DNA of 64,000 nucleotides from NCBI GenBank assembly GCA_016786885.1, contig JAEUVO010000052.1, positions 12,930 through 76,929 on the forward strand. Reading direction: 5' to 3'. The stretch's first letter is position 1; each line of letters begins with the position of its first letter. The DNA is from Chitinophagaceae bacterium. GTDB lineage: Bacteria > Bacteroidota > Bacteroidia > Chitinophagales > Chitinophagaceae. Below the pieces are notes generated by a model. That model made no database searches and was not told the origin of the DNA. It saw only the letters and a list, made by a program, of their open reading frames with translations. Made by a program: the position numbers and the translations under genes. Below are positions 7,103 to 39,578 of the stretch, piece by piece.

Positions 7103-7205
7103 GAGGTGGGTTATATAAAAATAATTTCAGGATAAATACTTTAATACCTACTTTTCCTGTAACCATTAACCTAAATACATCCTTAATTTTCTAAAACGAG
7201 TAATT

Positions 7206-7841
7206 ATGTTAGATCAATTATTAGACATTGTAAAAAACTATGGAAAAGAAACAGTGGTGGAGAACCCTGAAATTCCCAATGAGCAAAACCAGGAAGTGCT
7301 GGCTGATGCAACCAAAACAATAACCAGTGGATTTCAAAATGTATTAGCTGGTGGCGGTCTTCAAAACATTCTTGATCTTTTTAAAGGAGGAGGTAATACT
7401 TCAGGCGGCAGCAGTGGTATTGGGGGCTTGTTGAAAAACCCGATGGTAACGATGATGGTGGGTTATTTTATAAGCAAGCTGGTGAGCAAATACAAAATGA
7501 ACCCATCTTCTGCCAGTAGTGTGGCTAATAATCTTATTCCTAATGTGTTGAATGGTATGATTACAGAAACTAACAATCCACAGAATACCAGTTTTACATT
7601 GGATAGCCTTATAGGCTCTCTTACTGGCGGCGGAAATGGTGGTGGATCACAGTTGCAGGATATTCTTGATCAGTTTGCCGGAAGAGGAAGTAATAATAGC
7701 GGAAACAGTAGCGGTGGATTTGACTTACAGGATCTTATCGGAAGTTTTACCCGAAAAGCTCAGGATAGCTTTCAAAATAATAACCAAAGCGGCGGCGGTG
7801 GTGGATTAATGGATATGATTAAAGGTTTTTTATCGAAGTAA
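7206..7841 (+). CDS. Gly/Ser/Asn-rich hypothetical protein (DUF937/YidB-like)
   Basis: 211-aa ORF with repeated amphipathic LxDLLxxFxG helices separated by Gly-rich linkers; own terminator. Confidence 0.7.
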   Translation: MLDQLLDIVKNYGKETVVENPEIPNEQNQEVLADATKTITSGFQNVLAGGGLQNILDLFKGGGNTSGGSSGIGGLLKNPMVTMMVGYFISKLVSKYKMNPSSASSVANNLIPNVLNGMITETNNPQNTSFTLDSLIGSLTGGGNGGGSQLQDILDQFAGRGSNNSGNSSGGFDLQDLIGSFTRKAQDSFQNNNQSGGGGGLMDMIKGFLSK

Positions 7842-8262: not shown

Positions 8263-8637
8263 CTATTTTTTTATAAACCTTTTCCTGCTGAAAAGAAAGC
8301 CACCCAGGCATCCGACACAGTCAGCACTTATATCGCTGTAGGAGAAATTCCGGTTAACAATAAAATAAAGCTGGATAAATTCCATAGTAATACCGTATAC
8401 AAGACAGGCCAATGTTATCCATACAAAGTTTTTTAGCAGGGGTGCCTTATTTCGTTTTGTCTTAAACAAGGCCCAGCACCACAAAACAACCATACCCAGG
8501 AACATTCCTGCATGAATCCATAGATCAAGCGAAATATCGCTAAACCAGTCTTCAGAGGGCAATTCGTCGCCAGGCATGGTCAGGAGATAGGTACTGATAA
8601 GTAGCCAGCCAATAAGAGGTAAATAAGCCAGTTTCAC
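8263..8637 (-). CDS. VanZ-like membrane protein
   Basis: DLWIHAGMF, YGITMEFIQ, RNFSYSDISADCVG pattern; four hydrophobic segments. Confidence 0.85.
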   Translation of the reverse strand: MKLAYLPLIGWLLISTYLLTMPGDELPSEDWFSDISLDLWIHAGMFLGMVVLWCWALFKTKRNKAPLLKNFVWITLACLVYGITMEFIQLYFIVNRNFSYSDISADCVGCLGGFLFSRKRFIKK

Positions 8638-8682
8638 GGTGTAATTATTTCGGCAATATTAAGCGAAGAATTGCTGACAAAT

Positions 8683-8714
8683 AAATAAAAGGGAGCCTCG
8701 AAAGAAGCCCCCTT
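8683..8714 (-). terminator. Intrinsic terminator between anti-sigma gene and vanZ
   Basis: Minus strand GGGGGCTTC-tttc-GAGGCTCCC (9 bp with G-U pairs) followed by TTTTATTTATTT. Confidence 0.75.
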
Positions 8715-8765
8715 GTTTTAACCAACTATAGAACCAAAACGACTATAGCAAAGGTTTAATACTTT
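8683..8765 (-). ncRNA. Candidate ECF-driven small RNA (~80 nt)
   Basis: Lies between a CAATCT-N16-CGTAT promoter (8797-8771) and the terminator at 8714-8683; has a 5' hairpin built on two CTATAG hexamers; no ORF. Confidence 0.45.
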
Positions 8766-8770
8766 GTCAG

Positions 8771-8797
8771 ATACGAAAAACGAAGTCTGTCAGATTG
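8771..8797 (-). promoter_or_regulatory. ECF-type promoter CAATCT-N16-CGTAT
   Basis: Same motif and 16-nt spacer as the promoter upstream of the ECF gene at 10173-10199. Confidence 0.6.
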
Positions 8798-8817
8798 AAA
8801 TAAAAAAGTGATATTCT

Positions 8818-9579
8818 TTAAAGGCCCCCCATTACATACATATCGCCGCCTGGCACTGAAGGATTCGGACGGTCTTTCTTTTCAAGAGTGATGGCAAAAG
8901 CATGGGCATTCCGGGCATTTTTCATTCTTACCAGCAGTTTCTTTTGTTTTAGATTATAATCAAGCATTCCCAGGTCAATAGGCTGACCATCTAATAAGGC
9001 CCACAGCTGGTATTGTTTGTCAGAAGCGGGAACCGGGAGATTATTGGCCAGCAGATAAACATCATGAGATGCAGTATCCCAATAAACGGTAGCATATGAT
9101 GCAGGAGAAACTTCCATTCCCTTCATGGAAGCCATTTTCACATTCGGATTCTCCTGTAAAATCCTGATATCCTTTTTCACTTCATCCAGTTCAGCAAGTG
9201 TAAGATCATAATTTCCTTTTAACTTCCTGTTTTCATTAGACAAAGTAATATTCATATAGAGACTGCCGGCGAGCAATATCACACAGGCCGCCACAGCATA
9301 TTTTAACCAACTTATTTTTCTTACTGGCACAGTCTGCATTGGTATCACTCTTCCGGGTTCACTTATCTGGTCAAATATTTTTGCCTTCAGATCGGCTGGC
9401 GGGGCAATAGCATTCTCCATCGCTTGCTTTTCCAATACTGTTTCAAAAGCAATTCTTGCCTGCAGCACTTCGGAATATTGTTCGCATGCTTTTTCAAACT
9501 CCCTTCTTTCCTCATCTGAAGCAAGTCCGAGAACATAGCTCTCTACTATTCCGCTTGATATGTATTTCTGTATGTTCAC
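8818..9579 (-). CDS. Anti-sigma factor, RskA (anti-SigK) family
   Basis: N-terminal YISSGIVESYVLGLAS, one TM helix, LP...DKQYQLWA...LG...FAITLE...G C-terminal domain; directly downstream of an ECF sigma. Confidence 0.9.
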   Translation of the reverse strand: MNIQKYISSGIVESYVLGLASDEERREFEKACEQYSEVLQARIAFETVLEKQAMENAIAPPADLKAKIFDQISEPGRVIPMQTVPVRKISWLKYAVAACVILLAGSLYMNITLSNENRKLKGNYDLTLAELDEVKKDIRILQENPNVKMASMKGMEVSPASYATVYWDTASHDVYLLANNLPVPASDKQYQLWALLDGQPIDLGMLDYNLKQKKLLVRMKNARNAHAFAITLEKKDRPNPSVPGGDMYVMGGL

Positions 9580-9583
9580 TTTA

Positions 9584-10123
9584 TTACTGAATCATTGTTC
9601 TTAGCTGTATCAAAGCACTTCGAATCCTGGTTTTTACTGTTCCCAGTGGAATATCCAGTGCTTTGGAAATTTCTTCATGGGTAAATCCCTGGAAATACGA
9701 CATATCTACCAATATCCTTAATTCGCCTTTTAGTTTTCCTAATACTTTTCTCAGGCCAACATCATCCATCGCAGGCCCGGTTACAGCACCTGCAATTTCA
9801 TTATTTTCAGGCAGCGCCACATTCTTCAGGGAATTGTTATGCCCCTTTGATCTCACCTCGTCAATGGCCGCATTACGGGCAATATTCAGCATCCAGGTAA
9901 AGAGCCTTCCTTTTGATGGATCATATGACTCTATTTTGCGCCAGATATTCACAAAAACATTTTGCAATACATCATTAGCTGTCTCTCTATCTGTCACAAC
10001 TGCATTCACAATGCCATAAAGAGCACCGGAATAGTTATCGTACAAATAGCTGAAAGCTTTTTCATTGCGTTGTTGCAACAAAAACACCAGCTCCTGTTCG
10101 CTGTATGTAGTGTTTAGGTTCAA
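9584..10123 (-). CDS. ECF sigma-70 factor (SigK-like, RskA-linked)
   Basis: AFSYLYDNYSGALYG, DVLQNVFVNIW, FTWMLNIARNAAID, LDIPLGTVKTRIR. Confidence 0.93.
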   Translation of the reverse strand: MNLNTTYSEQELVFLLQQRNEKAFSYLYDNYSGALYGIVNAVVTDRETANDVLQNVFVNIWRKIESYDPSKGRLFTWMLNIARNAAIDEVRSKGHNNSLKNVALPENNEIAGAVTGPAMDDVGLRKVLGKLKGELRILVDMSYFQGFTHEEISKALDIPLGTVKTRIRSALIQLRTMIQ

Positions 10124-10172
10124 GTAATTGGTTAAGATACAATGATTACAAAAATTATTGCATCCTGTTTAC

Positions 10173-10199
10173 TTACGGGGCAAGATGATTTTCGGATTT
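10173..10199 (-). promoter_or_regulatory. Putative autoregulatory ECF promoter AAATCC-N16-CGTAA
   Basis: About 50 nt upstream of the ECF start; -35 overlaps the gcvH stop codon; resembles SigK-type promoters. Confidence 0.65.
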
Positions 10200-10575
10200 A
10201 GCCAACAACAGCTTCATAGGCTGCGGCATCCATAAGGGCTTCTACATCAGCAGGATTGCTAACCGTCATCTTTACCATCCAGCCTTCCCCATAAGGATCA
10301 TTGTTCACCAGTTCTGGGGCATTGCCAAGGGCAGAATTGAGTTCTGTTATTGTGCCGCTTACAGGAAGAAAAAGATCAGACACGGTCTTCACCGCCTCTA
10401 CGGTGCCGAAAACTTCACCTGCTTCGAGTTTTTTACCAATTGTATCTACTTCCACATAAACTATATCACCCAATTCCCGTTGGGCATAGTCAGTAATACC
10501 AATAGTAGCAACATCACCTTCAAGACTTATCCATTCATGATCTTTTGTGTAGCGGAGATTAGCTGGGAAATTCAT
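10198..10575 (-). CDS. gcvH: Glycine cleavage system H protein (alternative start 10581)
   Basis: [32 protein letters not shown] lipoyl-Lys motif, NNDPYGEGW. Confidence 0.97.
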
Positions 10576-38801: not shown

Positions 38802-39578
38802 TTAATTCATCAAGGTTTCATCAGAAGCAATATTGGTATCAGTATCATCTAATAATTCTGTATCATTTAGCAGGCTCTGTATTTCATTTTCCGGAATATC
38901 TTTTACCAGCTCTTTAATATCCTGGTTTTTTTCTACAGAAGCTATAGTGCCTTGTCCGGATTTCTCTTCCTGTGTTAATTGAATAAACTCATCAATTTTT
39001 TCAGTACTTACTTTTTTGGTATTAACCTTTACCCATTTGTATGAATCCGAATCTACAGATACCTTATCTCCGTACAAGAAAAAATATCCGGTAGTAACAA
39101 TTATACCAGTCACTATGGCTGCAGCTGCAAAACGAATCCATTTACGACTGCCGAGTGATACAACTTTTGTTTTATTGGAAGCTCTTTTTTCACCCAGGTT
39201 TTCAAAATACCCGGCGGGTACTGAATAAGGCATTTCCTTTTTCAGGCCACTGAGTAAAGGTGAAAGAGTTTCTAACTCTTCTTTTGCTGACTGGCTACCG
39301 GTTGAAACAGAAGAGATCAATGATGTTTCTATTTCTTCAAAATACCCGGCAGGTACAGTATAAGGCATGTCTTTAGACAACTTGCTGAGCAAAGGAGATA
39401 AATAGGCTAATTCATCCACTGCATTTTCTGCCTCTAAAGCTCTGATTCTGCGAAGCACCTCCTCAACCAGTCCGTCAAAATATCCTGTCGGAGCAGAATA
39501 AATATTCCCCGGGGTATGTTCAGCCAGTTTGCTTTGCAATTCCCTTAGCTCTTGTAATATGTTGTCTCTCTGTGTCAT
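38802..39578 (-). CDS. Putative membrane-anchored anti-sigma factor
   Basis: Three repeats of (Y)xVPxGYFE/D-LSPLLS-type motif, single TM WIRFAAAAIVTGIIV; follows the ECF gene. Confidence 0.8.
   Translation of the reverse strand: MTQRDNILQELRELQSKLAEHTPGNIYSAPTGYFDGLVEEVLRRIRALEAENAVDELAYLSPLLSKLSKDMPYTVPAGYFEEIETSLISSVSTGSQSAKEELETLSPLLSGLKKEMPYSVPAGYFENLGEKRASNKTKVVSLGSRKWIRFAAAAIVTGIIVTTGYFFLYGDKVSVDSDSYKWVKVNTKKVSTEKIDEFIQLTQEEKSGQGTIASVEKNQDIKELVKDIPENEIQSLLNDTELLDDTDTNIASDETLMN

Follow-up and report, generated by a model that had tools for sequence, protein, structure and literature searches.

Organisation of the locus

The window analysed here, the whole stretch of 64,000 nt from contig JAEUVO010000052.1 of a Chitinophagaceae bacterium, carries on its minus strand an extracytoplasmic function (ECF) sigma factor gene, an rskA-like anti-sigma factor gene and a vanZ gene, and the 180-nt gap between the last two holds a predicted small RNA (sRNA) with its own promoter motif and intrinsic terminator. 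Conserved single-stranded UUGGUU stretches of this RNA are complementary to the start region of the ECF gene, a point that a preliminary description of the locus had missed. Judged by comparison with orthologous loci, the element is a real, widely conserved non-coding gene of the Chitinophagaceae. The features of the locus, in window coordinates, are listed below (UTR, untranslated region).

10581-10198 (-): gcvH, from the window annotation
10173..10199 (-): autoregulatory ECF promoter motif, AAATCC 10199-10194, N16, CGTAA 10177-10173; top weight-matrix match in the genome
10136..10164 (-): hairpin in the ECF 5'UTR, GAUGCAAU / AUUGUAUC, from the window and orthologous UTRs
10125..10135 (-): box A of the ECF mRNA, UUAACCAAUUA, positions -12 to -2; complement of sRNA UAUAGUUGGUUAA
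10121-10112 (-): box B, GAACCUAAAC, in the first ECF codons; complement of sRNA GUUUUGGUUC
9584..10123 (-): ECF sigma factor gene, 179 aa, UUG start codon (Pfam Sigma70_r2 and Sigma70_r4_2)
8818..9579 (-): RskA_C-type anti-sigma factor gene (rskA-like), 253 aa (Pfam PF10099, E 4e-14)
8820-8818 (-): stop codon of the rskA-like gene
8771..8797 (-): sRNA promoter motif, CAATCT 8797-8792, N16, CGTAT 8775-8771; second-best weight-matrix match
8680..8765 (-): predicted sRNA, ~85 nt, start placed ~7 nt past the -10 element and 3' end set at the U tract
8718..8737 (-): invariant sRNA core UUGGUUCUAUAGUUGGUUAA, from comparison of orthologues
8689..8714 (-): intrinsic terminator stem-loop 8714-8689, followed by a U tract at 8688-8680
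8654..8661 (-): TAATATTG, Bacteroidota-type -7 box of vanZ past the sRNA terminator (TAnnnTTG in orthologous loci)
8263..8637 (-): VanZ-family membrane protein gene, the conserved downstream neighbour

The preliminary description had proposed that the gap encodes an sRNA under the control of the ECF factor, and the features on which it relied are confirmed. The motif AAATCC-N16-CGTAA lies upstream of the ECF gene at 10199-10173 (-) and a second copy, CAATCT-N16-CGTAT, lies at 8797-8771 (-), where it begins 21 nt beyond the stop codon of the rskA-like gene and thus outside the coding sequence. The region 8638-8817 is free of open reading frames (ORFs) of ≥40 aa, the terminator stem is present at 8714-8689 with its U tract, and the separate -7-like element proposed for vanZ is found past the terminator as a TAnnnTTG box that is kept in orthologous loci. 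The sole frame of ≥20 aa on this strand is a 26-aa ORF with a TTG start that runs across the terminator and, because insertions and deletions within the terminator of orthologues disrupt this frame, the element was counted as having no conserved coding potential.

Conservation and structure of the RNA element

Among 24 genomes of the same genus, the DNA of the gap is conserved in 14, exactly those with an orthologous anti-sigma factor gene, such that the element is found in 14 of 14 genomes with an orthologous rskA and in none of the 10 without it. The non-coding stretch is 75-87% identical within the genus, compared with 60-67% for the anti-sigma factor proteins. The alignment contains three conserved blocks: the motif AATCT-N16-CGTA, a nearly invariant TTTTGGTTCTATAGTTGGTTAAA, and the terminator with compensatory substitutions in its stem. 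When 201 genomes sampled from the family were searched with a covariance model, ~19 from other genera proved to carry the element, with the core invariant, and a sample of 301 genomes from the order gave no match in any other family; the three weakest matches inspected (L065, L068 and L069) are plain terminators and were discarded as false positives. At least 119 species genomes, almost all of them labelled Chitinophagaceae, carry the exact 19-nt core, TTGGTTCTATAGTTGGTTA, as do at least 120 metagenome contigs; all counts for species genomes and metagenome contigs given here and below are among the matches listed. The order gcvH-ECF-rskA-element-vanZ is almost universal, with rskA upstream of the element in 106/119 genome loci and 87/89 contigs and vanZ downstream in 111/119 and 82/86, respectively. 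Conservation across the genus, the family and metagenomes is, on these alignments and counts, far above chance, and comparison thereby upheld the core idea of the preliminary description, a conserved non-coding unit with the ECF factor's own promoter motif and its own terminator.

The exact 19-mer also occurs in four metagenome-assembled genomes labelled Bacteroides fragilis, Citrobacter freundii, Bordetella parapertussis and Citrobacter sp. (L081, L094, L095 and L108), one of which (L094) shows vanZ and the promoter motif as well; wrong labels or mis-binning probably account for these records. Among the records listed, a single carrier, Chitinophagaceae bacterium IBVUCB2 (NFUV01000003.1), is not labelled as a metagenome-assembled genome and has the surroundings of the locus intact. 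No Rfam 15 family matched the window at its gathering score (best match L20_leader, 24.4 bits against 58.7, E 0.07), and no match recurred among 12 orthologous loci, where Atu_C8 appeared below threshold in one orthologue.

The predicted fold of the RNA has a minimum free energy of -27.4 kcal/mol (z -4.9), and none of 200 shuffled sequences was equally stable. The preliminary description had folded the RNA into a first hairpin (AACC/GGUU and GCUAUAG/CUAUAGU) followed by the terminator, and this is the minimum free energy structure in the window, but the first hairpin is not conserved. Its CUAUAG/CUAUAG helix is without real covariation, its AACC/GGUU helix is paired in 62% of alignment cells, and in other genera its 5' arm is exchanged for unrelated small hairpins. 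The terminator, in contrast, is paired in 96% of cells with four pairs changed on both sides, and it is the only structure predicted by RNAalifold. Of the promoter and hairpin that were expected to be kept at orthologous loci, the promoter is kept and the terminator covaries, while hairpin 1 does not. From the positions of promoter and terminator, the sRNA is predicted to measure between 72 and 86 nt in 82 species (median 78 nt).

Sigma factor gene and its promoter

The best NCBIfam match of the ECF factor is the SigK subfamily model NF007228, with a score of 129.7 bits, far under the cutoff of 226. With its RskA_C partner, the protein is therefore described as SigK-like rather than as SigK. 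Its start codon is TTG in 92/92 species and 62/62 contigs; the same start is found in the distant orthologues examined that have no sRNA. Transcription of the ECF gene is predicted to start near 10167, with the motif ~45 nt before the start codon, and the 5'UTR has a median length of 44 nt. In predictions for 78 UTRs, a hairpin ends near -14, directly before box A, and positions -20 to -14 are mostly paired. This hairpin shows apparent compensatory variants in orthologues, for example GAUACAA/UUGUAUC. In most genera, the ECF promoter has its -35 element overlapping the stop codon of gcvH (TAAATCC, 10194-10200, -); one genome (G103) has a deletion of the promoter, and its ECF gene directly adjoins gcvH.

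The bare motif AATCY-N16-CGTA is not rare, occurring three times in the window where 0.68 occurrences are expected (a count of three is attained by 1 of 100 shuffles) and 36 times in this genome, so that the observation as made in a single genome was correct but weak. A position weight matrix built from orthologous sites was scanned across the whole 4-Mb genome. The site before the ECF gene ranked first with 30.1 bits and the site before the sRNA second with 26.7 bits, followed by a third site with 19.4 bits; all other sites in the genome scored under the 5th percentile of the sites used to train the matrix. The motif AATC[CT]-N16-CGTA precedes the sRNA core in all 34 family loci (33 exactly, one with a single mismatch), in 107 of 116 species genomes (99 exact, 8 with one mismatch) and in 107 of 118 metagenome contigs (87 exact, 20 with one mismatch), usually at a distance of 27-38 nt from the core. 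Before the ECF gene, it is found exactly in 78/92 species, with one mismatch in a further seven, and in 46/62 metagenome contigs. It is absent from paralogous ECF genes of the same genomes. At the level of the motif, these data point to a promoter of the cognate sigma factor upstream of the sRNA.

The third-ranking site (G000:C70:40449-40486, +; AAATCA-N16-CGTAA) lies outside the window, just upstream of a gene for a 150-aa lipoprotein with a DsbD_N thiol:disulfide domain. This lipoprotein may be a further member of the regulon, which would hint at periplasmic redox stress as the signal. The third exact AATCY-N16-CGTA match of the window, at 39050-39074 (+), scores under 14 bits on the orthologue-derived matrix and is for that reason probably due to chance.

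Complementarity to the ECF start region

The 5'UTR of the ECF mRNA ends in a conserved ...CUUAACCAACUAU just ahead of the UUG start codon, and AUAGUUGGUUAA(G) in the sRNA core is its reverse complement. The core is antisense to the ECF mRNA from about -13 to +12, a region that reads UUAACCAACUAU, the invariant UUG, and then the first codons, GAACC..AAAAC, themselves complementary to sRNA GUUUUGGUUC. The predicted duplexes span the start codon from about -13 to +14 and, in 27 of 29 family loci, have energies of -20 to -29 kcal/mol (z about -3 to -5), compared with -10 to -15 kcal/mol when the mRNA segments are shuffled. For the starts of rskA, vanZ and the gene at 7206 in these loci, the values are only -6 to -18 kcal/mol (z -1.7 to +1.9). 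The sequence AACCAA is found within 25 nt of the ECF start codon in 68/92 species. Both partners are predicted to be accessible, with positions -12 to +7 of the ECF mRNA unpaired at a probability of 0.7-0.9 and the two UUGGUU stretches being the most accessible parts of the sRNA.

Several orthologues carry changes on both sides of the predicted duplex. In one (G080), the sRNA reads GUAGUUGGUAA and the mRNA UUACCAACUAC, which differ from the common pair by one base-pair switch and one compensated single-base deletion, and the duplex retains an energy of -30.1 kcal/mol (z -6.4). In another (G143), sRNA CAAUAGUUGGUUA and mRNA UAACCAACUAUUG form 13 Watson-Crick pairs across the start codon. At the outer end of the duplex, the -2/+2 pair is U-A in 73 species; three species have U at +2 of the sRNA, and in two of them the pair is A-U (Fisher p 0.003). 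Tallied per column, substitutions at the A and C positions of box A keep a G-U wobble with the sRNA in 42 cases and are disruptive in 19, a ratio that is no more than suggestive given the phylogenetic non-independence of the counts. Distant orthologous loci, whose anti-sigma factors are 38-47% identical, keep gcvH, the ECF promoter, a UUG-start ECF gene, rskA and vanZ, and these same loci have neither the sRNA nor box A; against the window's sRNA, their ECF starts give a z of +0.8 to +1.3 in G085, G221 and G203, and of -0.8 in G177. Taken together, the alignments and predicted duplexes show a conserved seed in the sRNA, predicted to be accessible, and a conserved, co-varying site in the mRNA.

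The preliminary description had proposed a different partner, CTAAAACGA (7191-7199), upstream of the gene at 7206. This failed on both energy and conservation, with a duplex z of -1.2 in the window and no conservation in 11 orthologues, and the start region of that gene gives a z near 0. The gene itself (7206-7841, +) encodes a 211-aa Gly/Ser/Asn-rich protein that lies in conserved synteny between vanZ and prfA in many genera and has no match in Pfam or NCBIfam. The starts of rskA and vanZ were also rejected (z near 0). A candidate second target in the start region of ftsZ, AGCCAACUAAAUCCAAAACGU, is present in the closest relative only and was rejected. The site at G000:C11:13403-13470 (-), outside the window, has 9+14 nt of complementarity inside a gene for a 230-aa membrane protein, including the genus-variable UCG, and was discarded, since the gene has a patchy distribution and G013 has not retained the site. 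A look-alike start region in a type I restriction subunit gene (G000:C5) belongs to a likely mobile gene. No second conserved target was found in what was a shallow search for other targets. Near-identical duplicates were seen on different contigs, at the 5' end of ftsZ (G000:C36:598-777 and G000:C70:552-730, 97% identity) and in the prfA-vanZ region (G023:C5 and G023:C85), and look like strain heterogeneity or redundant contigs.

Independence from neighbouring genes

In three genomes the element is separated from one or other of its usual neighbours. In G023, the element and vanZ are on a different contig from ECF-rskA, with the element keeping its promoter and the ECF gene its complementary box, so that the element can there act only in trans. 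In G015, an opposite-strand receptor gene of ~3 kb lies between the element and rskA and there is no vanZ downstream, and vanZ is also absent downstream of the element in G143. The survival of the element unlinked from rskA or from vanZ argues for a separate transcription unit, and against its being just a 3' end of rskA or a leader of vanZ. No other terminator is present between the rskA stop codon and 8689 and the sRNA's own is the only one before vanZ; it is thus probably shared with the operon. In type I sRNAs, such as MicL or DapZ, a promoter at the 3' end of the upstream gene goes with a terminator common to both.

Proposed mechanism and alternatives

The most likely reading of the element, promoter motif, terminator, distribution and conserved, co-varying complementarity found by computation is an ECF-dependent sRNA that prevents the mRNA of this same sigma factor from being translated, and we consider it probable. 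In this model, release of the sigma factor by the anti-sigma factor would allow its RNA polymerase to start at the two AATCY-N16-CGTA sites. Starts at the promoter of its own operon would give positive autoregulation, and starts at the sRNA promoter, 21 nt past the rskA stop codon, would yield an ~80-nt sRNA (8765-8680, -) whose terminator probably serves the operon transcript too. The AUAGUUGGUUAA of the sRNA would then pair with box A, from -13 to -2, and its GUUUUGGUUC with the G of the UUG start codon and codons 2-4. Pairing over this unstructured start, which lacks a Shine-Dalgarno sequence and has a weak UUG codon, would block binding of the 30S subunit, and the blocked initiation would act as direct negative feedback on sigma factor synthesis, capping the positive autoregulatory loop. 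The interpretation in the preliminary description, an sRNA effector of the ECF-RskA module, is as a whole partly supported.

Several points weigh against this reading. Ranked by duplex energy in this genome, the ECF start region is only ~36th of 18,777 candidate start regions, and it is absent from the 40 best duplexes of a genome-wide seed scan of all sequence; the case is built on conservation and not on specificity in a single genome. Box B is far less conserved than box A, with GAACC in 40/92 species, and the CUAUAG of the core is often predicted to be paired inside the sRNA. Two family loci (L052 and L054) carry the sRNA with poor complementarity, their ECF genes having lost the promoter motif and box A, and G103 keeps box A without the sRNA, having also lost the ECF promoter. 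The covariation events are few and are not phylogenetically independent of one another. The transcription start, RNA size and dependence on the ECF factor, together with transcription from the sRNA promoter and pairing of the RNAs in the cell, are inferred from sequence; repression, as the sign of the effect, is assumed from where the RNAs pair.

The same complementarity could operate in cis only, with the element as the 3'UTR of the ECF-rskA mRNA folding back on its own start to limit the rounds of sigma factor translation and the promoter-like motif being of minor importance. With no other terminator before 8689, the sequence antisense to the start region is very probably part of the operon mRNA, at its 3' end, only 21 nt separate the rskA stop codon from the -35 element, and the complementarity fits cis and trans pairing equally well, which makes fold-back a serious and non-exclusive alternative. 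As the complete explanation it is nevertheless unlikely, since the motif is as conserved here as before the ECF gene and is the second-best site in the genome, in G023 the element keeps its promoter and, on a different contig, the ECF gene keeps its complementary box, and the G015 copy is parted from rskA by the ~3-kb opposite-strand gene. An origin that joins the two modes is conceivable, although doubtful: a dedicated, single-target anti-start-region RNA, derived from an inverted duplication of the 5' end of the sigma factor gene, may act both in cis, as the 3' end of the operon mRNA folding back on the start codon, and in trans, as a separate sRNA made from a second copy of the ECF promoter and silencing sigma factor mRNAs. 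The reverse complement of the sRNA body matches the ECF 5' region at 24 positions over 29 nt, with an alignment score of 34 against a shuffled mean of 17.8 (sd 3.7), and fits such an origin. The inverted match could instead be a relic of that duplication in a genuine ECF-dependent sRNA whose main targets are other mRNAs, given that other strong duplexes exist in the genome, such as the 9+14-nt match at G000:C11:13403-13470. A relic would be expected to decay, yet both partners are conserved across genera and change together, and the other candidates tested (the ftsZ start, the C11 site in G013 and the 7206 gene) are not conserved, so that this explanation appears improbable.

We consider it no less improbable that vanZ is driven by the ECF promoter through the element as its leader or attenuator, with a conditional terminator and the core as a sensor of a ligand or protein. 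The almost constant position of vanZ after the element (111/119 loci and 82/86 contigs) accords with such a role, a VanZ-family membrane protein could plausibly belong to an envelope-stress regulon and some read-through of the terminator is possible. However, a TAnnnTTG box past the terminator and ahead of vanZ is conserved in the orthologous loci, the folds offer no evident antiterminator pairing as an alternative, the G015 and G143 copies have no vanZ downstream, the start region of vanZ is without complementarity to the sRNA (z -0.3 to +1.9) and the co-varying complementarity to the ECF start would be left unexplained. Least probable of all is an explanation at the level of DNA, in which the core and box A are inverted protein-binding sites flanking the operon, or the core is a housekeeping promoter of the form TTG-N18-TATAGTTG. 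Although TTAACCAAC and GTTGGTTAA do form an inverted repeat ~1.4 kb apart and a generic sigma-70 scan flags CTGACA-17-TATAGT at the core, a promoter there would fire into the terminator ~10 nt downstream, and the two sites are on different contigs in G023. Moreover, the excess of wobble-keeping over disruptive substitutions in box A (42 against 19), the G080 deletion with its compensation and the shifted register of G143 are in keeping with base pairing and not with a fixed protein site.

Relationship to known systems

The proposed ECF-dependent sRNA has its closest general parallels in the sigmaE-dependent sRNAs MicA, RybB and MicL of Enterobacteria and VrrA and MicV of Vibrio, which close negative feedback loops (PMC13501541). 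These are transcribed by an ECF-type envelope-stress sigma factor and end at an intrinsic terminator, the same layout as is predicted here, and MicL sits at the 3' end of another gene's transcript, probably the position of the present element too. They differ in that the sigmaE sRNAs repress the mRNAs of outer-membrane proteins or Lpp, lower sigmaE activity indirectly and need Hfq, whereas the conserved site here is the sigma factor's own start region, which would make a one-step loop, and the host belongs to the Bacteroidota; there is no sequence or Rfam relationship between them. Direct negative feedback on an activator is known from the OmrA/OmrB sRNAs, which pair with the mRNA of ompR, their own activator (PMC2588501; PMC13501541). 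In those sRNAs, and in the Qrr-luxO pair, the activator is a response regulator and there are many other targets, in contrast to the sigma factor here. The Qrr sRNAs of Vibrio likewise pair with the mRNA of luxO, their own activator.

The nearest case found that involves a sigma factor is StsR of Rhodobacter sphaeroides, an alternative-sigma-dependent sRNA that, within a network of sigma factors, targets the mRNA of the ECF sigma factor RpoE and acts on mRNA stability (PMC8307010). StsR is made by RpoHI and RpoHII and not by RpoE itself, through a cascade from RpoE via rpoHII to stsR (PMC8307010), whereas at the present locus the same sigma factor is predicted to be both maker and target of the sRNA, at the ribosome-binding region. 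In the literature searched, no ECF sigma factor was found whose own dependent sRNA covers its start codon, none in Bacteroidota, and no paper on sRNAs of Chitinophagaceae.

The protein part of the module is of a known type. SigK-RskA (ECF19, Mycobacterium) and the other RskA-like groups ECF18, ECF214 and ECF290 combine an ECF factor with an RskA_C anti-sigma factor, as here; clades with RskA-type anti-sigma factors are grouped in PMC7826278 and autoregulation of sigK has been reported (PMC7509140). No sRNA is described for SigK-RskA or other RskA-type modules in the papers found.

Biological significance

Bacteroidota count ECF sigma factors among their most abundant signalling devices, and Chitinophagaceae are common in soil, rhizosphere and wastewater. 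To our knowledge, the classical sRNA chaperones are absent from Bacteroidota, and we know of few regulatory RNAs that have been characterised in this phylum. About 22 ECF sigma factors are encoded per Bacteroidota genome (PMC7826278). Were the dual action in cis and trans to be true, the locus would constitute a self-contained two-node feedback of one sigma factor and one RNA. If confirmed, the element would represent a very widespread sRNA family, with promoter, terminator and target all readable from sequence, and a clean natural case of sigma factor autoregulation capped by an sRNA on the factor's own start codon. The circuit is small and its natural variants suggest compensatory mutants, which would make it a good model for RNA pairing on the Shine-Dalgarno-less starts of Bacteroidota.

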